A stretch of 63,995 nucleotides of DNA, the filler included, from Diploschistes diacapsis (taxonomy: Eukaryota): the NCBI GenBank assembly GCA_023645945.1. It is 5 parts of 5 records of this genome, joined end to end, with 100 filler letters (N's around TTAATTAATTAA, not from the genome) between each part and the next. Parts side by side here need not be neighbours in the genome. Positions count along the whole stretch, not along the records: positions 39,301 to 52,258 come from JALAIB010000700.1; 4 more parts are not named here. One strand, 5' to 3'. Positions 5,102 to 52,358 of this stretch are shown here, piece by piece. Under the pieces are notes generated by a model. The model did no database searches and had not been told where the DNA came from. It saw only the letters and a program-made list of their open reading frames with translations. Numbering within the stretch: position 1 is the first letter of the stretch; the number at the start of each line of letters is the position of its first letter. Made by a program: the position numbers and the translations under genes.

Positions 5102-5950
5102 TCAACGCAGCGGCAACGGAGAGACGCTCCTACTCCGCCCGCTGTCATGCGGCACATTATATCCCTTCCGCCCACTTAGCGCACCCTCGCGGATACCCAG
5201 ACCGAAGACCGGACCAGCATGTGTATGCTCGGCATGGCCCTTCTTCCGCTCTTCGGGCTCGTTGCCGAGCCCGGCACTCAGTATCCGCTCATGCTCGGTA
5301 TTGTATCCCTTCCTGCCCCTGATTCCGCCGTGATGTTGTGAGTCGCTAGGCATGAGGTGCGGCGAGCCGTTGTAACCCTTGCGACCGGAAAGTGCGCCAC
5401 TGGTGCTGGATCTGCGCTCGTAGGAGGCGAGGTAGGCACTTGGATTTCGCGAGGGACTGAGGGACGAAGGATGTGGAGCGGGACCTGGAGCGGGCGACAC
5501 CTCTCTGGATTGCAATGGAGTGGCGTTGTAGCCCTTTCGATCGCTCAAGGATCCCTCGCGGCGTTGGGGAACGTACGTGGCCGGTGAACTGGAACGGGAC
5601 CGCGAGTCGGAGCGAGCGTCAATGCTTGGGTGCTCGGCGTTGTAGCCTTTCCGGCCTGTGAGACCGTCGTGGAAGGAGGGTCCCGTGGCCGGCGAATGCG
5701 AGTGCGAACGTTCGTCGCTGCTCGACTGAGTGGGTGGTGGGCTGTTGTAGCCCTTCCGCCCAAAGAGACCCTCACGGTGGGATGGCAGTGGAGAGGTGGA
5801 TTGACGAGAAGGTGGAGGCGTTATCTCATGGGATGGCAGTGGCGCATTGTATCCCTTCCTTCCAGTCAAGCCGCCTCGATGGGGAGAAGCATCTCGACTT
5901 CGATCAGAGAAGCCGTCTGCGGATAGATTTGGTGAGAGATGATAAGACAT
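5102..5950 (-). CDS. 282-aa Ser/Pro-rich protein with seven (G/E/D)xLxGRKGYN motifs, function unknown
   Basis: Intact ATG-to-TGA ORF. RKGYN is invariant in 7 copies encoded by different synonymous codons, separated by unrelated spacers. Confidence 0.75.
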   Translation of the reverse strand: MSYHLSPNLSADGFSDRSRDASPHRGGLTGRKGYNAPLPSHEITPPPSRQSTSPLPSHREGLFGRKGYNSPPPTQSSSDERSHSHSPATGPSFHDGLTGRKGYNAEHPSIDARSDSRSRSSSPATYVPQRREGSLSDRKGYNATPLQSREVSPAPGPAPHPSSLSPSRNPSAYLASYERRSSTSGALSGRKGYNGSPHLMPSDSQHHGGIRGRKGYNTEHERILSAGLGNEPEERKKGHAEHTHAGPVFGLGIREGALSGRKGYNVPHDSGRSRSVSPLPLR

Positions 5951-7986
5951 TTTTGAGATCCGGTCTATGGATTGTACGGGTAGGTCAGGCTAATTGAGAA
6001 TAGACTTTATGAATGGCTAAGCTCTGAGGTTCAATGGTCGATGTGAAACAATGTGCTCGAGTTGAAGTAGGGATCTGGGATGGAAAGGACTGACAAGCAA
6101 TATATATCCGTATCGATCAGTCGCCGAAGCTCTGCAGGGGAGTTCAGGCTCGTATCCACAATTGGTAGAAAGGTTATTGATTTTCAGAATTCATCTCACC
6201 GTCTCACGTCAAGTTTTTTAGCAGTGGGCCCCAACAGCCACACGGCCATGGCTATGTTAAGGGATTTGCTATTCACACAGCTCGTGAGTCTTGACGAGCG
6301 AAGTTGGCCGATGTCAGGTTGGCCGCAATATGGCACAGCCGGTGGCAGGCATGCTTGGCCGTCCAAAGATGCTGATTCAGGTGCAAGGGGGAGTCCAGTC
6401 ATTGACGGGCATCAAAGCGGATTAGCGCGAGCACACTTGGTGAAGAGAAGCAATTGGAACGGGGAAGACGGAAGGGCCCGTTGAGAGAGGAAGGAAGAGA
6501 GAGGAGAAACAACGGCGAAGGTTGCTGACAGGGAACGAGAAAAGGCTTCTAGAAGGTGCAGCAGGCAGTAGTAGTCAGTAGTTAGTACCTACCCTACTAG
6601 TAAAGGTACGATGCAGTGACTAATATTTTGATATTTTGATATTTTGATTACGAATTTTCGAACAATGAGTTCTAAATAGTGAAGATATAATGCCAGGAAT
6701 AAATTAAAATTAGTTAATTGATTAACCACTAATGGGTGTTAATCTTAGTTATTTGACGATTAATGGCTCCCGTTAATTGAATATAATATTAATCGTTCAA
6801 TAAATAATGAATGGAATGGGTAGTAGGTAGCGAGCAGGTAGCGAGTAGGTTACAGCTAGTCCTAGTATTTGGCTGGGCTATTCCTGGGCTATTCCTGGAT
6901 TCGCTTCAGGCACATCAGCCTCACCCCATCCTTGGAGCATTATTTTTCCTTTTCGCAATACAAGACTAATCTGGCACTTATCTGTATCATAATACTCATA
7001 CTCTTTATGACTTATGTCAAGGGCTTTGTAAGAGACGTGGTACGGTCACCACCGACCTGCATTTGTTTCAAGCTAGAAACTTCGACTGTTGGACGCCGTG
7101 TTTCTATTTGTGTTTGTTATTGCATAATATATATATCGGTTGAAGTGGTTGAGGAAACACAGGCACCATCTTACTGGTCACCACCATGCTGGGTCAACGA
7201 CACGAGGAGTCATCAGCACACGCGCTACTTTCTTATATGCATATTGCGCACATGGCTTTTGCATCAGAGCCACGTTATTGGGGACTCGCTGATTGCAGGA
7301 AGCAAGTCGAGAAGAAGTCGGACTCAAGACCATGCCTGATCAACGGCTGTATTTGTGGAATGCTACATTATTATTGCCTCGGTGTGGCAGCCCTCATGAC
7401 CCTTGCGCAGCTGTCGAGGCTGTACGATTCCATCTCAATTTCCAGGCCTTTAATGATGTGCCGCCAATGGAAAGGCAACTCTTGAATGCTTCGTGAAATA
7501 GGCTGCACTGTAACACCGTTTCAAACGAAAACTGTCATACAAAACTTTTGTGAACTAAAGGCACTAGCAGCACAACTGTATTCACTTCTCTCTCCATACA
7601 GCATTGGCAGGAGAGCCCTGAAGTACTCTGATAACCTAATAAGGCTTCTGCCTGCTCGGGCCGTTTGAGGAGCACTGTAGCTCTCCCAGCGCATCCGAGA
7701 AAAAAAAAACCGCTCATGCCCCCTAGCTCTGTTCCCTGAGTCATGCATCATCTCACCTTGGACCTTTTCAACGGCAACATCATGAGTTTGAAAGGTAGCC
7801 GCTCCGTTCTTATTCCTGTAAGCATGCTCTGCGGATATCACTCAGAGTTACCGACTGACGCGACACTTGTAAGCACCCTGCTCTAAAATCAGGCGTTCCT
7901 ATCGCTTTGTGTCTGACAAAGGAAGAGCGGCTCAAGGGGCGCAGGGGCAGCATGACAGCAGATTGGACTCCATTCACGCTGCTTTC

Positions 7987-13022: not shown

Positions 13023-13122
13023 NNNNNNNNNNNNNNNNNNNNNNNNNNNNNNNNNNNNNNNNNNNNTTAATTAATTAANNNNNNNNNNNNNNNNNNNNNN
13101 NNNNNNNNNNNNNNNNNNNNNN
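13023..13122. other. Artificial contig linker (N44-TTAATTAATTAA-N44)
   Basis: 100 nt with six-frame stop core, identical to the other three linkers. Confidence 0.99.
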
Positions 13123-26136: not shown

Positions 26137-26236
26137 NNNNNNNNNNNNNNNNNNNNNNNNNNNNNNNNNNNNNNNNNNNNTTAATTAATTAANNNNNNNN
26201 NNNNNNNNNNNNNNNNNNNNNNNNNNNNNNNNNNNN
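26137..26236. other. Artificial contig linker
   Basis: N44-TTAATTAATTAA-N44. Confidence 0.99.
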
Positions 26237-39200: not shown

Positions 39201-39300
39201 NNNNNNNNNNNNNNNNNNNNNNNNNNNNNNNNNNNNNNNNNNNNTTAATTAATTAANNNNNNNNNNNNNNNNNNNNNNNNNNNNNNNNNNNNNNNNNNNN
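39201..39300. other. Artificial contig linker
   Basis: N44-TTAATTAATTAA-N44. Confidence 0.99.
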
Positions 39301-39320
39301 TCCCACGCCCCAGGGGAAAT

Positions 39321-39322
<2 letters not shown>

Positions 39323-39359
<37 letters not shown>
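39323..39359. repeat. (AC)n microsatellite
   Basis: About 18 AC units. Confidence 0.95.
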
Positions 39360-39364
<5 letters not shown>

Positions 39365-41731
39365 GGACGGACGGAAAATGGACGCGTTGCCTTTTGGCTT
39401 GTCTTGCCTCGCTCCCATCTCTTCCCCCAACTTCTCGGCGAGACCGAGGCCGAGACCGAGATAGCGGTGGGATGCTGTGGGGGAAAAAGGGGACGGGGTG
39501 CGTGGAAGGGAGCTAGGGTTTTTTTGGGATGGTGGGGAGAGGTGGGCAAGGGTTTGGAAAAGGGATGGAGAATGGGGCGTTGAGCGAATTGAAAGGGGGA
39601 ATTGAAAAAAGAAAGGGGGGGAATCGGATGTAGCAGGGCTGCTTCCATCGCCTGATCGATAAGAAGAGGGGTGGAGGAAATTACCGGTGTTGTGTTATAT
39701 ATCGGATGCGAGTAATAGCGGGTTGATGTTTGGGGGTGTTGATGTTGAGGACTCAAGGGAGTCGATGGGGGAGAGCAGTGCGGTGTTGTCGGGTGCCGAA
39801 GAGCGCGGTGGGTTTGTTCAATGGTGTCTTTGGGGGAAGACGTTGATGATTGGTTACCGTGGCGTTCGCACGGACAGAGACGGATGGAGGCGAGGTCGGT
39901 GCTGTCGTCCAATGCTGGTTGGGCGACCCAGTATGGAAGCCCGTCGACCCGCTCGTGCTTGCGGCCGGCAGTGGTTGAACCCCGGTTGGTACACACCTCC
40001 TGTTGACTGTACCGAGGAGGGCTCGAATGCCATAGCTTGGGAGGTAAGGCTGGGCTTGGGAAGAGGCAGTCTGGGTACTTGAGCCGTCGAAGCGGCGATG
40101 AAGGGCTTGTAGAAGCAGGTAATAAGGAAGCCGTGAGGACGAAGAGACTGCTGCCGAGCACAATACGGACAGCAGCGAAGTCGTGATCTTTCCGTATTCA
40201 CGCCAGGCTGTGGCAATCAGTTGACACAGCGACTGAGCCTTCCAGAGCTGTACACGCGTCGTAGGCGGTAAGGGCCAGAGTAGAGGTATTTGAGTAAGCC
40301 ATATCGCCTGCATAACTGGTTTTGCCACCCTCAAGCCCTGACCACCTCTCTAACTCTTGCTACACCAAGGCCTTGCTCTCGAAATCGTCGTGATGTCCTT
40401 CATCGTAGGGCTCTTTGTTGTATCCTAGAAGAGTCCTTCGCCGACCGCGGTCCCTGCTCCTCCCTGTTTAGATTGGTCGGGAAAACAATGTTGATTGGTT
40501 AGGGTCGTGTCCGAATGTTGTAGTCGTCTGTAGGGATCCCAGCAAATAATGAAACATGTAAACATGCCAAAAAAACCACATTATGAAGATATAGGAAAAG
40601 TTGAAGATTGTGATGGAGCAGCTAAATGACATGACTGGTGGAGGACACGTCGAGTCCGCTGGAAGTAGCCCACAGGATGGACCTGCCCTGATACGATAAA
40701 TTTAAGGAACGTCCCGATAAGCCCTAACGAACTGCTCGAAGCTGCAGAGCCAACGCCGAAGTCACGAGAAGCTAGGAAAGAGCCACCTACGGCAAGTAAT
40801 TTCAGCTGCTGGCCCTTGACAAAGGTATAGAGATTACGACCAGAGTCCGGGAAGATAAAGCGGAAGTGCCGCGCTTCATTCCCATGTCCTCCAGAGATGA
40901 AAGTACACATCTTCGAGATTGGAAGCTGAAGTCCGCTGCTGGGATTTCCTGAAAGGGGACACGGCGGGCTCTTGGCCTCCTCCGCATCCCCAGTACCCGA
41001 GTGGTCCCAAGCAGTTGCCACATTCAAGGGAGGATGATCAACTCATTCAACAGTAGGGCATCATTTAAACCTCCAGGTTGGAAGCCCTCCTACGTTGAAT
41101 AATTGCTTCAAACTCAAACATAGGTGAGAGAATATAACGCATAGTCATGCCTTGAACTTCTTCTTTCGAGTACAAATTGCTTCGATTCCCACCTGGGACT
41201 TGGGAATTAACAAGTGAGCCAGCTCCGAGAAAGAAGCGACTTTCTTAACTCGTACTTGTCCCGAGGGTGTTTCTAGCCATCCTTTTCCCGCATCGAGAAC
41301 TGGGCTTACTCCTCAATGCAAGTTAACATCCAGCCCCTTGTCTGTTCTTGTAGAAAATTACTTGTTTTCAAGACGGGACGGCATATTGATGTGGAATAAG
41401 CTTTGGAGGATGCAAAAGAGCAAATTAGAGATGTAAGAATCAGATGAGCCTTGAAATTAGGATTGTGCTCCAGAGTATAAAATAAATGTGCAAGACAAAC
41501 CTATAAAGCAGTACAGTACTTCCATCGTCAGACATGTAGCCATACATAGGAAGGTCGGTTTGATAGGACCATTAGATGCCTCAGCCCGTAGAACAAGACG
41601 CTGCTCCAGACGACTGTAGGGTGTTTCCGGAGTTGGTTTAGTCGCCTGGAATCGTGTCGTGTGGGAAGTAGCTCGATCATAGAGCAAAGCAACGCACGGA
41701 CAGACCTGATCTCTGTTGGTGTCTCATGTTA

Positions 41732-42137
41732 GGGGCTCCGCAACAAAAGGTCGTAGATTTGGAGCGTAGATTTCAATTAACGTGATTCACCACGAAACGG
41801 AACACCCCACGAAGCGGAACACACCACGAACCGGAACACTACATATAATGTAATCAAAAAAAGGCAGAAGAACGGGGTAGTGTAGTTGAGAACAGATTTA
41901 GCTTCGTACAAATATGGAAGCGCTCGATCTAGCGCAATTACATTATAATGTAGTGTTCCGCTTCGTGGGGTGTTCCGTTTCGTGGGGAAAGACGTTACGT
42001 AGGGTTTGCTGCTGACTGCTGACAAAGCAGGTGTAGATGTCGGTGAAGTCCGAATGTTGTCGGAATAGGTAATATACAATAAAATCTATGTATTATCGGG
42101 ATCTACGCGTAGATCTTTGACGTCTGTTGCAGAGCCC
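41732..42137. mobile_element. Older MITE (PIF/Harbinger-like) hosting the Fot1-like MITE
   Basis: Imperfect TIRs GGGGCTCCGCAACAAAAGGTCGTAGAT and ATCTTTGACGTCTGTTGCAGAGCCC, with TTA at 41729-31 and 42138-40. Confidence 0.55.
41780..41995 (-). mobile_element. 216-bp Fot1/pogo-like MITE, copy 2 (inverted relative to copy 1)
   Basis: ACGT-starting TIRs, TA on both sides (41778-9, 41996-7), and about 125 bp nearly identical to the reverse complement of 25603-25725. Confidence 0.9.
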
Positions 42138-42930
42138 TTATTTTGCATAATTTCCCACACATGGTCCACGATACCTCAATTAGTAATGCAGGTTGAGGGC
42201 TAACTTAAGACGGGCGCATGCAGAGAACCGCGCAAACAAAACAAAAAACGAATGTTTAAAAGCAGCAACAAAACTCTGCGCTGCAGGGGGGGAAATTATC
42301 CGATCTGACACACAGGCTCATAGCGCATGTAATGTAATGTTTGTTAATGTGAGCAGAGCGCAGGACCTTGAAACAACGTACAGCAAAATCACCAGATTAT
42401 ATAGTATTCTGCTTGTCATCCTGTTTCGCTTATATAGCGAAAGCAACATGGTGTAAAAGTGCCAAGATCGATGCCAAGATATCCCCTTCCTTCCCTCCAC
42501 CCCACAAATGACCTCCGACTCGGAAGTAAAAGCTCCCACTACTATATCTCTGTCCCCGCTATATGCCTTTGCCTTTGCCTTTGCGTGGCTGAGGCTGAGG
42601 CTGAGTTTTTCTCGCGCATAGAAGAAGCTTCATCAATTTTTGATTTTCTATTCACATGCTATATATTTACAGCTGATTAGATAGTCTGTACAACTTGGAT
42701 GGAGCCAAGGCAACCATTCCTTCCGTATGACCCAACCTTTATGCACAAGAACCGACTCTTCCTCCCTTCACCAGTCCTATCGTAATCTCGTAAAGCTAGC
42801 ATGTATTGCCATGCTGGTTATGCCGTGGTCGGTGAGGCGGTCGCTAAATCGCAATAATATAAATCGAAAACTGGGGTATCTTCAGGAAATTCGGACCAAA
42901 TCAAGAGCGCGACGGGTTTTGCCTTTTGGG

Positions 42931-44859
42931 CTACCGCATGAACTTTCGGGCTCTTCTGGCGACTGGCTGGTGAAGGGCCGGTGTGTCGGCAACGGACAGG
43001 TCTGATGACTCCGCTCGAGCAACTCTCGCAGAGGTATCGTAGTTTAGCACACCGACCGGAATGGGGCAATCCGCCGTTGGGGCCGTGGTGTAGTTTGTCC
43101 CAGATGGGCAAGATATATCGTTGCACTCGGTCCCAAATTGTGGGCTCGGCGTCCATGTCTTGACCGTGGGCGTCTGTCCAAGCATATTGCCAGCATTATC
43201 GTATGCAACTGCGTAAGCGTAGAGGCTGAAAGGGGTTATCGCTACGGTCTCAAACGTTCCGTTGTACGCTTGCGACGCAGCCTTCACAAACACGCCCTCT
43301 TCGGATGATCCTAAGAAATAATCCCAAGAAGCGACGTCGGTTGCTCCATTCCAAGAGGCGTAGTGAGCTGCACTGCCATAGCAGCCACGCGAGTAGGAGA
43401 ATAGGGCCATTTCGGACTTGTTAGGAGTCGACTGCCATTCCCACTTGTATGCACGATAGGATTGGATGGGAAAGTCGCCGAACCGAGCATACCAAACCGG
43501 CCGGCCATCGTCGGTCACCTCGTACATGTATGGATGGCTTCCCATCCCAAGAAAATGGTTTCCGTTGGACAAAACCTGGTGACTTCCTTGGCTGCTATCA
43601 AGCTGCTTGCCAGGAGAGACGTACTGCCCGACGAGGGTAGCAGAATCGTCGCTGTTGATTCGGATCGACATTCCTGAAGATGCATTGGCGGTAGGAGCTT
43701 CGATGTCGTTGTTGCCGTTGTCCCAGATGGTAACACCACCAACGTCTTTGTTCCATCGAACATGATGTTGAAACGAGAAATTGCTATGATGTTTGTTAGA
43801 GCAGCATATGGGTATCATAGCAATGAAACTTACAGGCTTGGCGAGCCGGCTACTTGGGAATCCAATGTTTTAAAGGTGTTGCGCTTGCCTCCCATACGCC
43901 AGATGATTTCCCCTGGTGGCTTGCCAGAAGGACTGCTCAATCCAGCGATCTTGTAGAGCGTCGACACATGACGACCGGAGACGATATAATCCCCATCTTC
44001 GTCTTTGTCCACGGAGTTGATGTGGAAGAAGTCGAACCCATCTCTCCCAGTCCTGCCAGTGCCAATGAGATGCTCCCCAGGACAAACGTACGTGTCTTTA
44101 GGGTCGATATAATCGCTAGCAGACCATTGAAAAAGCTCCGTGTTCGTGCCATCTGTGGTGACTTCGGAGAACAGTCCAGTCTTGGTGAAGATGGTAGTGT
44201 TGTCGTTGCAGTGAGGGTAAGTGACGTCCTCCGGAAACGTGATGTAGCTAGTCATGAGCGCCGTTTCCCCTCCCTTAACCAAGTTGAATTCATGCAGATC
44301 CTGGGTCAAAGAAAGATTCCTCCACTTGCCCGAAGGCTTTACCTCTCGCACCTGGTTGTAACTCCGGTCGTAGATTTTGGTGCTGGAGCCTTCGTGACTT
44401 GCTCCTCCACCGCGTGCGCCTGCAAATTGCGTGTAGGCAACATGCTTGTCCCCTTCAAAATCCAAGACTTGAGGATTGAAGGCTCCGTACCCCTCTGGCA
44501 AAACGCCATGACCGCTCCAGACTATTTGCTGTATGCCATGAGCAAAGATGTCGCGTACACAGCCGGTCAAAACCTACCCCTTCGCTGTTGTATGCATACG
44601 GGCCATACTTGAAATTCGTCTTCCCAGGGCTGTTCGGCGTGAAGAAAACGTAGCCGGGAGCAGCTGCTTCGGGCTCATTTATATCTACGTAGAGCTTCGG
44701 TGCTACAATGTCCGGTCTCTGTGATATAAAAGTTAGCGATTGAGCAATGTTGAAGATGCGGATACATACGGAGAGAAACTCATAGGTCGAGACTTCTTGT
44801 GCTGAAGCAAGTGTGACTGCGGTGAGCAGCATAGCCACAATATGCTTGAGAGAGGCCAT
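42931..44859 (-). CDS. Secreted arylsulfate sulfotransferase (ASST/Arylsulfotran_2 family), three introns
   Basis: Signal peptide MASLKHIVAMLLTAVTLASA. Motifs DLHEF, FQWSA, DFFHINSVDKD, YIVSGRH, IIWRMGGK, FSFQHHVR, SQGS, YRAYK and YASWNGAT. Confidence 0.9.
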
Positions 44860-45670
44860 GCTTGTCTATTGTCAAAAGCTGGTTCTGCGACGAAGCGTGC
44901 AGAGCAGAAGGTTGAATGAATGAGGGGCACGTCGCTCACGACGTGCTAGATGCCTTCAGAAAAGTTGGAAATGAATGTCTGAAGAAAGAAAGACCAAACC
45001 AGGACGGCGTCATAGCCATATAGGGACGCCACCCTAGAGAAACGAAAGGTAGGAGATTCCAGCCAAGAGTCACTTATGTGGGGAAAAAGGAAGCCAAGAC
45101 GGAGAAGAAACGATGTGTTTAGTAGAGAACCAGTCAGGTCAGTCCTGTAGCTACAAGCGGCCAGCTGCTCCATAGATAGTAGCAATCAGCAAGATAAAAG
45201 CGGCGATCCAGCACAAGAAGGGTTAGGGGGGTCGGTAAGCAAAGACGAAGTGATCCCCTGAGGTAGGCCCATTTTGTCACCCAAGCGAGATCTTATCTCG
45301 CCAACAGCTGCATCGGTAGGCGAGCAGAGTAGTGCGTGGGCAGAATGGGCAGATAGGGGGTCAAAGGACATGAAGTTACAACGCTCATCTCATCGTTTAT
45401 GGGCAGACGAGCCTGTATTTCCTTGTTGTGTACAGAGTATGCGATTGGCTCTGAGTTGGAAATGAGCCAAGCCAGGGCTGAGCAGCGGGGTGAAGTTTCA
45501 TTATTATTATTAGGAGTGTCAGTCAGAGAGTGCCCCATAAGTAGTCCGGCTCCGGTGCGCAGGTACAACAGTGCTAGTAGGGGTAAAAAGCCTAGGTCGC
45601 GGATCAAGAAATGGTGTGGTGTGCTCGCTGATTCCCGCCCATGTGTCAAGACCCGACGCAGGTACCGGCT

Positions 45671-45720
45671 GTTAGCTGTTAGCGTTAGCGTTAGCTTGGC
45701 GTTAGCGTTACGATTAGCAT
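45671..45720. repeat. (GTTAGC)n tandem motif in the ASST-GT43 divergent intergenic region
   Basis: gttagc t gttagc gttagc gttagc ttggc gttagc gttac gattagc. Confidence 0.7.
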
Positions 45721-45911
45721 GTACTTTCTACTGTAGCGGTATGTATTTCTTTCATTACGCGTTTCAGTATGAAATCTATCATTCCTAATCCAGAGGCCCA
45801 GCACCGGAAACCTACCCACACCTCATAATTATCATATCTTCAACGCTCGCTCATTTCGTTTGTCTCTAGTCGATTTCTTTCCTGTACATACATTCTTCCC
45901 CAACAACAAGC

Positions 45912-47630
45912 ATGGAGGAGATTCTTCAGAAACGTCTGAAAGAACACGAGGCTCTTGTAAGAGTCAAGGCCACTCGTTACGATAGCTCTCCAGACATCTC
46001 GACGCCACGGAGTGTCAGTGAATGGTCTAGGCGAGCTTCATTGGACATGAAGCGCAACAGATACAACATGGACGATGGCGACGATTACTCTTTCTCGGAA
46101 TACTCAATGTATTCGGACTCGCCTTTGAAGGAGAAGATACAGGCACAGTGGGCAAACTCCCAGAAGAAGAAGAGTCGGCTAAGACCTTACATCCTTCTCG
46201 GCCTTCTAGCAGTGGGCACTGCCATTGTTTCCATCTACCTTCTCGTCGTCTCGATCCAGTCACGTCAATCAATACCGCAGTCGACTACACAGCTCATGAC
46301 CTCGAGCAATGGCCGCAAATCATACTTCTCCGAGCTGTATGCGTCAGGAGACGTACATCCCGGGCTATTCCCGCCAGAATCTACCGGGGGTCTTACAATG
46401 GATCGTTGCTCTATCTGCAATTGCAACGCGATCCCTAACAACTACGATCCCTCACCCGATTTACAATTCTCTCCCCGTGCTCGAAAGGAGGACATTTACC
46501 TAGAAGATGGTACTGTTGACATGAACGAATTTATGCGTCAAGCACTATTAGACATTTACTGTTCGCGGCAACACTTGGACAACCCGCAAGCATTCAAGCT
46601 TGCCCGCCGTACTGCCAAGAGCCTCCAAGAAATGATGTCGTGGTCCCTGGGGTCTCTGGAACTTGGGAAGCCGACTGTCTATTTAACAACAGCGACCTCC
46701 CCAAACGGGAAGGCCGAAGCGTTCCGACCTCAGTACATCCGCCGCCATGGCCGCCAAATTCGTCGGTGGTTGAAGCAGCAAGAGGAAAAGGCAAAAGCCG
46801 ATCATCCAGACTGGCAAGTCGTATGGATCATCGCGGAAGACGAAGTAGAGATCGATCCCCAACTGGTCACGACGTTAAGGAGAACCGGTGTCCCTTTTGT
46901 CTACTTCGCTTATGGACTTACTAAGACTTGGGGCAACGCGCAGAAGAACGCTGTGATGCAGGTTGCCTACGCGATGAGTCGGCCTCGGGAGCATGGTGGT
47001 ATCCTTGGTCATGGTCCTGTCTATGGTCTTGATGACGATAATAGGATGCTGCCGGAGCTGCTTGACATGCTGACTCGACTAGAACGTGTGGGAGTCCTTC
47101 CTGTTGGTAATCTAGGCGCCTATGGATTTGAATCGCCCATCGTGGACGACAGTGGCTATGTGATAGGGTCTGGATCTATATGGCAGCCAGCGACCCGCAT
47201 TTTCCCCTTCGATTTCGGCGGGTTTGCATTCAATACATCCCTACTAGGCACGGAAATTTCAGGGCCAGCATTCTGGAAGCACACCGAGTTCGCTGGCGAA
47301 TCCGAGTTCCTATCCCAGTTTGTCGCGCAATTCGGGGACTTGGAACCTTTGTGTGGCCGCAAGGTTGAGCAGAATTGCCACGCTGTGTGGCACAACGAAC
47401 CGCTGTTGGAGATGGAAAAGATGAGCGACGAGGAGGAAGTTCGGTTCATCAAAGAGCACGGCATCGAGAAGTACCAACAGACCCTCGAATCGCAGGCTCG
47501 GGAGTTTGACAGCGAGAGGGTATCGAAGTACGTACGGCCGGATGGTAAGAAACCCAGCGAGGCTTTTGAAGCCATTCCGGAAGTGACTGAGGATGGGGTG
47601 GAGATAGTATGGGTTGAGGTGCAGGCGTAA
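45912..47630 (+). CDS. Type II membrane glycosyltransferase family 43 (GlcAT-I/IRX9/IRX14-like), intronless
   Basis: Single TM (YILLGLLAVGTAIVSIYLLVV), then GT43 motifs in canonical order: VYLTTAT, WIIAED, QKNA, VYGLDDDN, FPFDFGGFAFN, ESEFL, LEPL, C..VWH. Confidence 0.85.
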   Translation: MEEILQKRLKEHEALVRVKATRYDSSPDISTPRSVSEWSRRASLDMKRNRYNMDDGDDYSFSEYSMYSDSPLKEKIQAQWANSQKKKSRLRPYILLGLLAVGTAIVSIYLLVVSIQSRQSIPQSTTQLMTSSNGRKSYFSELYASGDVHPGLFPPESTGGLTMDRCSICNCNAIPNNYDPSPDLQFSPRARKEDIYLEDGTVDMNEFMRQALLDIYCSRQHLDNPQAFKLARRTAKSLQEMMSWSLGSLELGKPTVYLTTATSPNGKAEAFRPQYIRRHGRQIRRWLKQQEEKAKADHPDWQVVWIIAEDEVEIDPQLVTTLRRTGVPFVYFAYGLTKTWGNAQKNAVMQVAYAMSRPREHGGILGHGPVYGLDDDNRMLPELLDMLTRLERVGVLPVGNLGAYGFESPIVDDSGYVIGSGSIWQPATRIFPFDFGGFAFNTSLLGTEISGPAFWKHTEFAGESEFLSQFVAQFGDLEPLCGRKVEQNCHAVWHNEPLLEMEKMSDEEEVRFIKEHGIEKYQQTLESQAREFDSERVSKYVRPDGKKPSEAFEAIPEVTEDGVEIVWVEVQA

Positions 47631-49689
47631 TGGCCTGGCTTATGACCTTTACGTGACCATGGCCTGTACATATCTGCAATTTTCTACCCGTCTATATTTG
47701 TCAATACGTTGCATAGCAGCCGTCGAGATATACCGGCTTCGGCGTTTCCCAAAGGGACTTGATGTTAATCGATATATATTCTAATATCTCTAAAAGATAA
47801 TGCTGTGCAAACAACCTCAACCCCATCCTCAAAGGTTATTTAACCGCGTATATTTTTATGTCAATCGCTGTAGGAGAACTTCTCCAGCCATAGCGAGAGG
47901 ACAAATCTCTGCATGTATATTCAAGGCGCACCGTTGTCCTTTATACACAGCTTTGTTTTTCTAGTTCGTGACACGCCATCTTACTTGGTTATGGCGAATT
48001 TGCCCTAGCCTCCACTTTACCACACTTTTCCCGCATCAGGAACATTCAACAATCACGCCATCTGATATCACTACCGCCTTTGGGTTCGAAGATTCAGTCG
48101 AGCATGATGTTTCAAAAGGTAAATGATCCCTCTCATGTGTTCAAACATCACGGCTAAACCTACAAGACTGCTGCTACATTCTGAATGATTTGCTTCTTCT
48201 CCGGGGTGTTCTACAACGGATAAAACAGGGTGTTGTCAGCGATAGAACATCATGGGACCAGGACAATCAGGGCTCAGGGGGGAGAGATCGGGGAGCGAAA
48301 AAGTGGGCACTCCATAACTGATTCTAGAACCTTTTCTTTATCTGGCTTTGTTTTGCTCCGCTGCCGATGAATCTTGTGACTGTCCTATCTGCGGCGTGGC
48401 GTCGTCGAAGTCATCGATGTACTGAATTCGCCAGGGAGCGAATGATAACAGGTTACTGCCAATAGCATCTTTCGACATGGCGAAGAAGCGAGATTACGCC
48501 AAGAACTCGTGTCCCGCAAAAACGAATCCAATCACTTATAGGGCCTCGGAAACCTACAACTATCATTGTCACTAAAGCAGACACTCGGAGCACTACTACG
48601 CACTACTACTACGCAATTGTAATTACAATCACAAGGCAAGCTCAACACAGGAACTATCTGGAGCTTCAAGGTCCGCTCGGAGCATGACCACCAGACGGGC
48701 CGTCAGTCTGCTTATCGGCGGTGGCCGTTCGTGAAAAGAATCACAAGCAACGAACGGACTTTCCTATGGGATCGACTTCTGGCCTGTTCTACTTTACTTC
48801 TCGACATACGTTCGGGTGGTCTGGAATGAGAATGAATACAAGCCGTATGGGTCTGAAGACAAAGCTTGAAGTCCAAACAACGGGGGATCTGAAAGGGGAC
48901 GAAGCAAACGTACTTTTGAGCTGCTGTAACCCCCAGTCGTCTCAGACGTGTTTGGTATGGTAATCTATACAAGTAGGTTTTATTACACACGGGGCGTACA
49001 CGTACACGAGGATCCGAGATCCCTTTCGGCTCTCTTACTTACTTGGCTGGCGTCTTCCGTTCATCTTGGGTCAGCAGCAGCCCCTTGCAGTAGTACCATC
49101 TTCCACTGCGCGTTTTATCTGCGGTACATTCCCGTTGTCCCAAATCTAAAAGTCCGCCGAGTTTATCAGAATCATACTCCTGGCTGATTCGGGGATCACC
49201 ATGGCTGCCAACCCCTACAATAGGCTACAAATTCATGCAATTGGCTGCTACGCTCGGTAATACAGAACTCTCTCGTAGCAGCGGTCGACACTCTGCTTTG
49301 ACCGGGCCTGGAGAGAGCCCTGCCATTCGACTATGGCCTAATCTGCCCAACCTCCAACTGCTGTGCTTTTCTGCCCGGTCAGTATGATGTATAGTTTGTG
49401 TTTGATTGTCATCCCACCCGCTAGTCACAAGAATCCGACCTGCTAAAAGAGCAAGCCCGCCGAGACAGTCGTGCAGACAGCCGTGCTTGATGGGAACTAC
49501 TACTACCATTTGCTTGTGATATCTTTATCCAGAGCCTCTGCCCAGCCTACTTGGCATTTTTTGGTCACCTCTTCTCTACTTTCTTCATAGCACCACGACG
49601 CAAGCTGGGCTTCTTTTCGTTCTCTTGAACATATTTCCAGCTTCCTTTTACCTCCTGTCATTCATTACTCCTCATTTTCATAGCACATC

Positions 49690-51831
49690 ATGATTGCCCT
49701 ACCACATAGACGGGTCGCGCTCCCGGTCACGCTTGTTATCGTTCTTACCATCATCCTCGCCGCCTCTCTCCCAAGTTCATCGCACATCAGCTTTCGTAGA
49801 CTACAAACAGCATCAAGCTCAAGTAGAGCAACAGCAGCAGCAGCAGATCTTGAGGCAACGGCCAAAAGCAGAACCTCGGACCCAAAAGCTGTCGAGCCAT
49901 TGTTCAAAGCAACTTACGACCAGATCCTCGCCTCAGCTGCGCAAAAGCCATTAGCTAGGGACCCGTGCGTTGATTTGGTTGTTTCGGACGGTGGGAACCG
50001 CGCAAAGAGGGCAAAGGGCACGAAGGTCCTTGTTACGGGTGGAGCTGGTTTCATTGGGTCCAACTTGGTCGACCGGCTCCTGGACTTGGGATACTCGGTC
50101 CGCATCTTCGACAACCTGTACACTGGATACATCCGCAATGTTCCTCTCGACAACCCAAATGTGGAGCTCATTGTCGGTGATATCCTCGATAAAGAAATGC
50201 TTGCCAAGGCAGTGGAAGGAGTCGAATATGTATATCACTTGGCTGCCATGAGCAAGGTGGTTCCTTCCGTTAAATCTTCCGATATGGCTCGATTCTGTAC
50301 CGAGTCCAACGCCTTGGGGTCGTGGAACGTCCTCGACGCCGTTCGCAAGCAAGGCAGCATCAAGAAGGTCGTGTACGCAGCTTCGTCGACGTACTATGGC
50401 AACCAGCCTGCGCCTCAGACCGAAGACATGGCTCCGGACTTCTTGACTCCATATGCTGCCAGCAAATATGAAGGCGAGATCCAAATGCAGATGTTCGATC
50501 GCCTCTTCAGTGTCAATACCATCTCCACTCGCTTTTTCATGGTCTACGGTCCCCGTCAACCCAGTACCGGCGCATACGCCATCGTGACCGGAGTCTTCGC
50601 CAAGCAAGCTGCTGACGGAAAGCCATTGACCATTGAGGGAGATGGCAGCCACTACCGCGATTTCATCCATGTCTCCGATATCGTCGAGGGTCTGATCCTA
50701 TCTCAGCAAACCAAGGAGCTCCACGGAGATGTTATCAACCTTGGCTCAGGAACTGCCTATTCGGTCCAGGACGTGGCAAATCTTGTCTCCGGCAATCAGG
50801 TCCACGTCGATGCGAGGGCCAACGATCTCGAAGGAACCTTGGCCAACACTTGCAAGATGAGGAAGGCGATTAACTACCAGACCAAGAAAGACTTCAAGAC
50901 TGAGATGAGCTACATGGCCAAGGAGACGATGGCTGGAAACGTCTTTGCTCAATCGTGGCTCGACGCTGCTCGTGCTCTTTCCGCTCCCCACCTTCTCCCG
51001 GCTGGCTCGCCCCTTTTCCAATGGCCAAGGGATACCTCGGACTGGGATGCTCTCGTCTTTGCAATCAAGCGTGTTTCGGAGGAGGCGGGCGCCAGCAGCA
51101 GCGATGTCGGCCGTCGCATGAGCTTGATCATGTTCTCCATGACCGACGACGACACCGACAATGCGGCGAACATTCTCCTCAACACGGTTTTCTCCCTGGT
51201 CAGGTTCGGCGACGTCAAGGCATACATGGTTGGTGCCATGGACGACTCCGCACTGGATATCTGCACGACTCTCAACCTGCCGTGCTACGACGCTCGTGCG
51301 ACTACTGCAGCCGCCGTCATGTCGAGCCTTGTGTCCAGCGGCTTCGATGTGCATCTCGCCCAAGCCGGCAACTCTTACTACAACGCCATTGAATCCGAGT
51401 TCACGAAGGAGACCAGCAACGCCGACATCGCAGCTGCGAAGCCTTCCGGAGACATCTTCATCCGCTCCACGGACAAGACCAAGGCCGCTCTCAGCAAATG
51501 GGCCGAGTCGGCAGCCGAACGGGACTCGAAATTTAACCTCGGCAGCGAGATCTACAGCGCCGACAAGTGGCCTCAGCTCTCGGTCACCAAGAACAACTTC
51601 GTCGTTGAATGTACGGTCGCGCCATCCTTGAGCTGCGGAAAAGGGTTCTACGCATCTGCCAGCTGCAACAAGGCGGAGAGCTTGAACGCCACGATTTCAA
51701 CGCTCAAGGCTGCCAACGCATGGCATCTTTCGGACTGCCACGACCTCGCGCACTGCGACAGGCAGCAAATCGTGCCGCTGAGATGGGCCAGCTGGACGCC
51801 GGACTTGGCCGCAACGGGAGGCATTTGCTAA
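49690..51831 (+). CDS. Signal-anchored NAD-dependent NDP-sugar epimerase (extended SDR) fused to a C-terminal nucleotide-diphospho-sugar transferase (GT77)-like domain, intronless
   Basis: N-terminal hydrophobic helix; VLVTGGAGFIGS, YAASS, PYAASK, RFFMVYGPRQ, GDGSHYRDFIHVSD. C-terminal LLNTVFSL..G..YMVGAMDD.A...C..LNLPCY..LVSSGFDVHL resembles the GT77 start; that part is less certain. Confidence 0.85.
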   Translation: MIALPHRRVALPVTLVIVLTIILAASLPSSSHISFRRLQTASSSSRATAAAADLEATAKSRTSDPKAVEPLFKATYDQILASAAQKPLARDPCVDLVVSDGGNRAKRAKGTKVLVTGGAGFIGSNLVDRLLDLGYSVRIFDNLYTGYIRNVPLDNPNVELIVGDILDKEMLAKAVEGVEYVYHLAAMSKVVPSVKSSDMARFCTESNALGSWNVLDAVRKQGSIKKVVYAASSTYYGNQPAPQTEDMAPDFLTPYAASKYEGEIQMQMFDRLFSVNTISTRFFMVYGPRQPSTGAYAIVTGVFAKQAADGKPLTIEGDGSHYRDFIHVSDIVEGLILSQQTKELHGDVINLGSGTAYSVQDVANLVSGNQVHVDARANDLEGTLANTCKMRKAINYQTKKDFKTEMSYMAKETMAGNVFAQSWLDAARALSAPHLLPAGSPLFQWPRDTSDWDALVFAIKRVSEEAGASSSDVGRRMSLIMFSMTDDDTDNAANILLNTVFSLVRFGDVKAYMVGAMDDSALDICTTLNLPCYDARATTAAAVMSSLVSSGFDVHLAQAGNSYYNAIESEFTKETSNADIAAAKPSGDIFIRSTDKTKAALSKWAESAAERDSKFNLGSEIYSADKWPQLSVTKNNFVVECTVAPSLSCGKGFYASASCNKAESLNATISTLKAANAWHLSDCHDLAHCDRQQIVPLRWASWTPDLAATGGIC

Positions 51832-52258
51832 GGTAGGCAGGCCTCAGGATACGATGACGATGACGCGCGCGCGGTGCGGATTTGTATATATACCCTAACA
51901 CATATTTACACAACACGTTCGCTGCATATATTCTTGGACAGTTCTTTTGCATGGCATAGGCATAGGCGGCGTTCTTTTTTTCCCTTTTTTTTTTTTTTTG
52001 GATATCATTGGTGTCGAGACCGGGGGACTGACCTGCCTTTACTCAAACGTTAACAAAACAATATAAAATATTTGAAAAACTACTTCTGATCCTCCGTAGA
52101 GCTATTGTAGAGCTATTGTACTTGCGACGATCTCTTTCAACCCAGAGCCCCTCTCCACCAATCTCAGAGTCATCCTCAGCAGATGACTTGGCCGTGTACA
52201 CTGTCCAACAATGGATGGCAGCTACTGGACATTCGCTTGCTTGCCAGGGTGGGGGGGG

Positions 52259-52358
52259 NNNNNNNNNNNNNNNNNNNNNNNNNNNNNNNNNNNNNNNNNN
52301 NNTTAATTAATTAANNNNNNNNNNNNNNNNNNNNNNNNNNNNNNNNNNNNNNNNNNNN
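52259..52358. other. Artificial contig linker
   Basis: N44-TTAATTAATTAA-N44. Confidence 0.99.

Follow-up and report, generated by a model that had tools for sequence, protein, structure and literature searches.

A conserved, uncharacterised gene cluster with a divergent GT43 and a probable role in glycan modification in Diploschistes diacapsis and other fungi

The closest described relatives of the enzyme considered here are the human glucuronyltransferases GlcAT-I, GlcAT-P and GlcAT-S (B3GAT3, B3GAT1 and B3GAT2), type II membrane proteins of the GT-A fold and of family GT43, and an analogy may be proposed with the HNK-1 epitope pathway, in which GlcAT-P and a sulfotransferase that we take to depend on 3'-phosphoadenosine-5'-phosphosulfate (PAPS) cap galactose with a sulfated acidic sugar. 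Fungal members have rarely been recorded: Table 1 of one survey of 94 fungi has GT43 in 3 Basidiomycota and in no member of the Ascomycota (PMC3893384), which bears out the rarity in ascomycetes claimed in a preliminary description of the DNA analysed here; a 2015 analysis drew its fungal sequences from Pucciniomycotina only (rusts and Rhodotorula) and concluded that prokaryotes lack the family (PMC4449007); and a paper on a Fusarium genome includes GT43 in a list and does not discuss it (PMC10712836). GenBank already names some ascomycete members GT43. The DNA in question, hereafter the window, is 63,995 nucleotides of Diploschistes diacapsis (assembly GCA_023645945.1), composed of parts of five contigs joined by N-run linkers. 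One of them, JALAIB010000700.1 (G000:C4031; 12,958 bp; 39301–52258, its ends being linkers), carries a GT43 glycosyltransferase between an arylsulfotransferase (ASST) and an epimerase fusion. What emerges, in place of a recent transfer, is a conserved cluster that has not been characterised before, is probably concerned with glycan modification and centres on a divergent branch of GT43; the preliminary description mentioned the ASST neighbour and missed the gene context that makes these genes a cluster.

The central gene (45912–47630, + strand) is an intronless open reading frame (ORF) without internal stop that encodes a 572-residue protein, a genuine GT43 by sequence and predicted fold. Residues 302–494 (46815–47393, +) match PF03360 at E 1.5e-22 and 80.9 bits, above the curated cut-off of 27; the PDB sequences matched are GlcAT-I (E 4.9e-11), GlcAT-S and GlcAT-P; and the AlphaFold model (predicted local distance difference score, pLDDT, 77; predicted template-modelling score, pTM, 0.71) returns GlcAT-P, -I and -S at Foldseek ranks 1–10, with a best E of 1.5e-15 and the next family at 2e-5. 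Within the match lie D310, the DDDN motif (374–377), E407, W424, R429, D434 inside FPFDFGGFAFN, E463 inside ESEFL, and H494, and both DDDN (D374–N377) and the catalytic base E463 are present in 60/60 rows of the Pezizomycotina clade. A single hydrophobic segment at about residues 94–113 (46191–46250, +; hydropathy 2.57; helix 91–117 in the model) follows a 93-residue tail and predicts type II topology, and each of the stem cysteines C166, C169, C171 and C217 is shared by 90% or more of the 53 homologues. The preliminary description had thus read family membership, the three named motifs, the topology with its tail of about 90 residues and its Cys-containing stem, and the lack of introns beside a three-intron ASST much as they appear after profile search and fold comparison. 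This gene is the sole PF03360 match in a search of the host genome (G000).

Comparison with GlcAT-I shows an acceptor site preserved and a donor pocket remodelled. Eleven of 17 key residues (PMC4449007 Table S2; roles as given in PMC12118331) are identical, namely D113, D194–N197, E227, W243, R247, D252, E281 and H308, and the five contacts with the galactose acceptor, E227/R247/D252/E281/W243, are all retained as E407/R429/D434/E463/W424; the H308 equivalent is kept in 60/60 Pezizomycotina-clade rows. On the donor side Y84 becomes S263, P82 becomes A261, R156 becomes W340, R161 becomes K345, R310 becomes E496 and T309 becomes N495. Because the acceptor contacts are all kept, the enzyme is likely to act on a terminal β-galactose with inversion, and because the donor residues have changed, UDP-glucuronic acid (UDP-GlcA) is not assured as its donor. 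Judged by alignment, both phosphate-binding arginines are lost in the fungal GT43; R272, present in 59/60 clade rows and 20/20 bacterial or viral rows and replaced by Q in 28/31 animal-type rows, may substitute for them. Overall identity to the human enzymes is 23–26% by structural alignment, and the fungal protein differs further in its long, Cys-rich stem, its separate clade and its clustering with an epimerase and an ASST. Of eight strict motif patterns, of which a member of the animal GlcAT subfamily should show at least three (PMC4449007 section 5), two are in place, a third regular-expression match at 525 being out of position, and the fungal protein lies within GT43 yet outside that (B3GAT) subfamily. 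The "full GT43 motif series" of the preliminary description therefore survives for the key motifs and fails as to completeness, and its suggestion of a new specificity fits the data.

The gene at 49690–51831 (+; a single open frame) encodes a 713-residue, predicted type II membrane protein in which an NDP-sugar epimerase of the extended short-chain dehydrogenase/reductase (SDR) type is fused to a C-terminal GT77-like domain. The SDR domain (residues 113–352; 50026–50745, +; PF01370 E 2.3e-48) contains GGAGFIG and an intact S232/Y255-xxx-K259, and K189 and M284 are invariant in 37/37 family members. The C-terminal domain (50977–51828, +) matches PF03407 weakly (E 3.2e-4; 21.2 bits, under the cut-off of 22), as do 11/37 family members in this domain at E<=0.1, and its Atlas features point the same way (0.94; PF03407 in 24/30 matches). 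It has no DxD at residues 549–565, where we would expect one, and is a probable pseudo-enzyme. A PDB sequence search with this domain returned nothing, and the fold searches with the fusion model, their matches being filled by the SDR domain, are silent on whether it has a GT-A fold. On the other side of the GT43 gene, the ASST (42931–44859, − strand) is a 592-residue product of four exons (44859–44770, 44718–44578, 44528–43834 and 43783–42931) with splice sites and an open spliced frame, and it diverges from the GT43 gene across a 1,052-bp spacer (44860–45911) that is possibly a shared promoter. Two exon ORFs match PF14269 (E values 7e-16 and 5e-12; the scores, 46 and 59 bits, both exceed the cut-off of 27), the N-terminus resembles a signal peptide, and the motifs DLH156EF, H246INS, SGR263H and FQH315H presumably align with EcAST numbering; all five motifs recur in 11/12 relatives. 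With the bacterial arylsulfotransferases (ASTs) EcAST, DhAST and Cpz4 it has in common the PF14269/PF05935 families and the His, His-x-Asn, Arg and His motifs (catalytic residues as listed in PMC13426309), and it differs from them in having introns and predicted secretion.

The association of these genes recurs in other fungi. ASST, GT43 and epimerase bear consecutive accessions in Agyrium rufum (MCJ1307949/50/51) and Lambiella insularis (MCJ1479307/08/09) and likewise in Xylographa pallens, X. vitiligo and X. parallela; in X. carneopallida and in Elsinoe fawcettii the consecutive accessions are those of GT43 and epimerase, in X. soralifera those of GT43 and ASST. On metagenome contig L003 (the metagenome scan gave no more than 4 loci from 91 pattern matches) GT43 and epimerase stand head to head, and the GT43 there contains the Hyaloscypha protein P0298. 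Linkage was further tested by exact equality of longest-contig size, which sees each cluster's longest contig only: 17/53 GT43 representatives, the host contig included, match one of the 38 epimerase homologues found with the C-terminal region among 5,959 candidates, as do 16 of the 33 representatives on contigs of at least 10 kb, and 5/12 ASST matches share a size with a GT43 representative. Those 12 are the homologues of ASST exon 3 at E<=1e-20 among 1,061 candidates, and 10 of them sit with the cluster by accession or exactly equal contig size. In the chytrid Gaertneriomyces, moreover, a single chain (KAI9004727.1, P0130) comprises a transmembrane anchor, an epimerase 45% identical to the cluster epimerase over 675 columns, the GT77-like domain and GT43, and a trace of the middle domain is detectable in Olpidium P0119 (E 8.5e-7). 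GT43 and epimerase very probably act in one pathway, and the ASST probably joins them there. Two glycoside hydrolase genes occur near relatives of these genes: a GH79 C-terminal-domain gene (GH79 being, we presume, a beta-glucuronidase family) adjoins the epimerase in Xylographa, which speaks for the module proposed below, its nearest host-genome homologue lying on a different contig; and on two related contigs a gene for an alpha-L-arabinofuranosidase of GH51 type is convergent with GT43 (L003:5864-7500 and L005:850-2500).

It is possible, at roughly even chances, that all three genes belong to a single module of the secretory pathway, by which an anionic cap is placed on a galactose-terminated glycan. 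Within the Golgi lumen, the membrane-anchored SDR would epimerise a UDP-sugar at C4, most likely a uronic nucleotide sugar that it converts from gluco to galacto configuration, with the DxD-less, putatively GT-A domain of the fusion serving as a non-catalytic scaffold; the GT43, as a metal-dependent inverting transferase with base E463, would add the epimerase's sugar β1,3 to O3 of a terminal β-galactopyranose on a wall or secreted fungal glycan; and the secreted ASST would finally move sulfate from an aryl-sulfate donor, through a sulfo-histidine, onto the GT43 product. By analogy, the cluster may be a functional counterpart of the HNK-1 pathway while standing apart from it: in the fungus the sulfotransferase is an ASST, which does not depend on PAPS, there is a luminal epimerase as well, and the genes are clustered. 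Besides the altered donor pocket, several observations weigh against this module. The top structural matches of the SDR are the UDP-GlcNAc 4-epimerases PelX and WbgU and the methanogen epimerase Mth375, and the sole UDP-sugar dehydrogenase found in the host genome is WecC/TviB-like, nearer UDP-ManNAc/GlcNAc dehydrogenases than UGD. As to linkage, 17/33 GT43 representatives on contigs of at least 10 kb lack a size-matched epimerase, among them Exophiala viscosa and Pseudovirgaria; ASST linkage is seen solely in a Lecanoromycetes-rich clade, with no ASST on L003; the ASSTs of relatives end in long tails rich in Ser/Thr/Pro, a sign that they may sit at the cell surface, apart from Golgi enzymes; and the host genome holds an unlinked ASST paralogue of 50–55% identity.

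The GT43 branch itself is old in fungi. Our homologue search found 53 proteins among 2,152 candidates, spread over Lecanoromycetes, Eurotiomycetes, Dothideomycetes, Leotiomycetes and Sordariomycetes (named members are Agyrium, Lambiella, eight Xylographa species, Exophiala, Elsinoe, Pseudovirgaria, Hyaloscypha, Stipitochalara and a Xylariales strain), and the best 150 of 653 profile matches include Cronartium, Cystobasidium, Olpidium, Rhizoclosmatium, Gaertneriomyces and the rotifer Adineta. Homologues from Xylographa and Lambiella (P0276–P0283, P0024) are entered in GenBank as "RNA polymerase II subunit A C-terminal domain phosphatase", a misannotation, PF03360 being present. Two unrooted trees were built, a quick one from 168/215 domains (47 dropped as short or redundant) and a careful one from 59 hand-picked rows; groups for the approximately unbiased (AU) test were named after viewing the quick tree, "animal-type" is a label from tree and motifs with one row checked against PDB, and no row was identified as land plant. 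The two trees agree on a group of fungi, Adineta and one further row (100/98), on Dikarya (96/90) and on Pezizomycotina (100/99), and the host GT43 groups with Agyrium and Xylographa (100/97), which makes a lichen-forming host likely. Chytrid and Olpidium sequences fall outside, and the sister group of the Pezizomycotina GT43s is Pucciniomycotina, whose uncharacterised GT43-like proteins (Rhodotorula, Puccinia, Melampsora; PMC4449007 Table 1, the accessible text describing no cluster) differ at the K345 and N377 positions; Cronartium and Cystobasidium, which represent the sister group in this analysis, are 38% and 34% identical to the host protein. These relationships make the GT43 gene one that fungi inherited long ago and kept patchily, with loss in most ascomycetes, which is one of the two origins the preliminary description had put forward. 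Exophiala and Elsinoe group together (99/90) contrary to taxonomy, which hints at some fungus-to-fungus transfer. The Adineta ricciae GT43 (P0133) is nested among chytrid and Olpidium sequences (100/100), likely through a fungus-to-rotifer transfer.

A serious alternative for the deeper origin, to which we give somewhat less than even weight, is that the fungal clade, and perhaps the entire module, came from bacteria before the chytrid–Dikarya split rather than by opisthokont descent. A genome scan yielded 21 bacterial GT43 loci (L006–L026) in Omnitrophota, Alphaproteobacteria, Planctomycetota and Acidobacteriota with one weak Nitrospirales locus, and a viral scan yielded two (L027–L028); the bacterial-type proteins match PF03360 at E 1e-31 to 1e-52, and their genes sit in surface-polysaccharide loci. 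Fungi and bacteria are separated from animal-type and other sequences with support 94/89, and R272, the C481 cysteine and the H-N motif occur in 18–20 of 20 bacterial or viral rows, most animal-type rows having Q, A and H-T instead. Set against this, the tree is unrooted and the AU test leaves a grouping of all fungi with animal-type sequences unrejected (p 0.255). The gene neighbourhoods are similarly two-sided. Of the bacterial loci from which 44 neighbour ORFs were chosen, three (L012, L014 and L015) combine an epimerase, a GT43 and a PF03407 gene, and in one, L018, an ASST directly follows the GT43; another bacterial GT43, P0127, is fused to a PAPS-type sulfotransferase domain. Yet the bacterial epimerases are only 30–32% identical to the fungal one and have an insert, the ASST is 25% identical, and no homology was found between the fungal C-terminal domain and the PF03407 neighbours, which do not align with it (hhalign probability 0.2). 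Because L012, L014, L015 and L018 all belong to one GT43 clade and their partners are non-orthologous, the bacterial loci show recurring partner families, not a transferred operon. Neither GT43 nor the C-terminal domain occurs in any of 80 viral epimerase loci, and plasmids gave no match to the bacterial-type GT43 P0122 and, among the 12 matches listed, generic SDRs only (about 36–39%). In related proteins GT43 shares the chain with a GT2, sulfotransferase, methyltransferase, GT90 or PF03407 domain. A literature search whose coverage excluded subscription papers and bioRxiv supplements found no description of bacterial GT43, the chytrid fusion or the cluster.

It is rather doubtful that GT43 and epimerase are coupled while the ASST stands beside them in a single lineage through synteny only, or has small phenolics as its substrates, leaving the product unsulfated. 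The restricted linkage and the unlinked paralogue would fit such a bystander, and most ASTs act on phenols, Cpz4 and DhAST being sugar-sulfating enzymes (PMC13426309). The ten of 12 homologues that sit with the cluster argue for a functional tie instead, as do the bacterial GT43–ASST neighbours of L018 and the GT43–sulfotransferase fusion P0127. If the ASST does act within the module, its aryl-sulfate donors could be made by PF17784 sulfotransferases, several of which are present in the host genome; PF00685, the PAPS-dependent sulfotransferase family, has no match there, in an assembly that may be incomplete. The paralogue lies at L034:3693-5200 (G000:C3963) with no GT43 adjoining, and a second-type, membrane-anchored ASST at L044:3511-8560 (G000:C1402) is about 2.6 kb from a divergent PF17784 sulfotransferase, which we take to be a possible donor-relay pair (cf. 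Cpz8/Cpz4). On L037 and L038 (G000:C4193 and C3743), PF17784 genes are found about 1–3 kb from sterol-dehydrogenase-like SDR genes. Fungal polysaccharide sulfotransferases are called unclassified in one source (PMC11625862), and a 2026 preprint reports an arylsulfotransferase orthogroup enriched in chlorolichens (10.64898/2026.09.03.749242) that could not be matched to the cluster ASST.

The nature of the donor is more finely balanced. UDP-GlcA 4-epimerases (BcUGAepi, MoeE5 and the plant Golgi GAEs) resemble the fungal enzyme in being extended SDRs with a hydroxyl triplet, without the decarboxylase Glu and without the GalE Asn; they differ in lacking its fused GT77-like domain and the Met at the Thr178 position. 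Plant GAEs have Golgi topology, and the hydroxyl triplet at the catalytic Ser occurs beyond UDP-GlcA 4-epimerases. By motif position, as distinct from direct alignment, S232-S233-T234 fall where the carboxylate network of the UDP-GlcA 4-epimerase has T126, S127 and S128, with M284 at the position of T178, which contributes its main chain (PMC7984243); according to the same source decarboxylases carry a Glu, and GalE has an Asn that binds the 6-OH. The SDR does not fit a UDP-xylose synthase or decarboxylase, the Glu two residues past the catalytic Ser/Thr being missing and T234 present in 37/37; no UDP-xylose synthase was recognised in the 7 fetched of 14 other SDR matches of the host genome. 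On these residues the SDR leans to a uronic substrate, and a uronic donor seems to us slightly the better guess. The same module working with a neutral or N-acetylated donor (UDP-GalNAc, UDP-Gal or UDP-GalNAcA), the GT43 then being a GalNAc, Gal or HexNAcA transferase without glucuronosyl activity, is unlikely. It draws on the nearest structures of the SDR, PelX (also its best PDB sequence match, E 4.6e-54) and WbgU, on the appearance of TviC among the top NCBIfam matches, far under its cut-off, on the WecC/TviB-like dehydrogenase and on the change of two GlcAT-I arginines that contact GlcA. The fold matches PelX, Mth375, WbgU and UDP-GlcA 4-epimerase are close together in Z, UDP-GlcA 4-epimerase (22.2) not being the best of them (24.7 for Mth375). 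The dehydrogenase would fit an N-acetylated uronic donor, or else a canonical UGD may be missing from the assembly (4,361 contigs, and perhaps incomplete); it lies at L033:1806-8865 (G000:C3591) with a chitin-synthase-like GT2 and a repeat-rich protein with WSC-like segments. Speaking against an N-acetylated or neutral donor, the Asn of the R-[YF]-F-N motif, present in PelX and in 76/96 viral epimerase relatives (as RYFNV), is M284 in 37/37 fungal sequences, and the H308 equivalent of the GT43 is invariant in the Pezizomycotina clade. The UDP-GlcNAc 4-epimerases PelX, WbpP and WbgU are, further, cytosolic and bacterial, the fungal enzyme differing by this Asn-to-Met change, K189 and a membrane anchor.

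That this ascomycete lineage gained its GT43 by a recent horizontal transfer, be it out of animals, plants, algae or bacteria, as a form of the other origin proposed in the preliminary description, is very improbable and already largely refuted, a plant donor being outside the direct comparison: the very patchy distribution, the missing introns and the Exophiala–Elsinoe grouping would suit it, but the homologues span five ascomycete classes in a single fungal clade, within Dikarya and sister to Pucciniomycotina, and the AU test rejects Pezizomycotina with animal-type sequences (p 0.013) and with bacteria (p 0.002). Neither intron absence nor base composition serves as evidence of transfer; unbroken frames of 500–1600 residues are common in the window, so missing introns are uninformative, and the GC content at synonymous third positions (GC3s) of the GT43 gene, 0.56, is typical of ten other window frames (0.43–0.82).

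Elsewhere on the contig (39301–52258) no further gene was identifiable beside the three described, and the fetched proteins gave no match to its 5' flank or to the gap between GT43 and epimerase. No RNA holder was listed for 42900–51900, which is uninformative as to expression. At 41800–41990, where the ASST has a 5' flank poor in genes, a short repeat (CGGAACAC-type) and an inverted counterpart, found by eye, resemble a small transposon remnant. The N-run linkers occupy 13023–13122, 26137–26236, 39201–39300 (with a PacI-type core at 39245–39256) and 52259–52358, and genes across them are not syntenic neighbours. A 295-residue frame at 5102–5989 (−) contains many copies of a G-R-K-G-Y-N motif.

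These results extend GT43 to Pezizomycotina, chytrids and bacteria, as against the eukaryote-only conclusion of 2015, and they place three named genes in hand, in carriers that include non-lichen fungi such as Hyaloscypha. The acidic, probably sulfated extracellular matrix of lichens is described as unidentified in two papers (PMC7164778, PMC8355462). It is a speculative proposal, and one we think unlikely as it stands, that lichen-forming and other surface-dwelling ascomycetes carry a dedicated three-gene route, traceable to the chytrid fusion and a bacterial-type GT43 branch, which makes a uronic donor within the Golgi, caps galactosyl glycans with it and sulfates them without PAPS to an HNK-1-like sulfated uronic glycan, and that this route is a source of the lichen matrix. 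The GT43–epimerase–ASST cluster is in any case a candidate source of the acidic, sulfated lichen gel, and it would give a fungal ASST a natural substrate.

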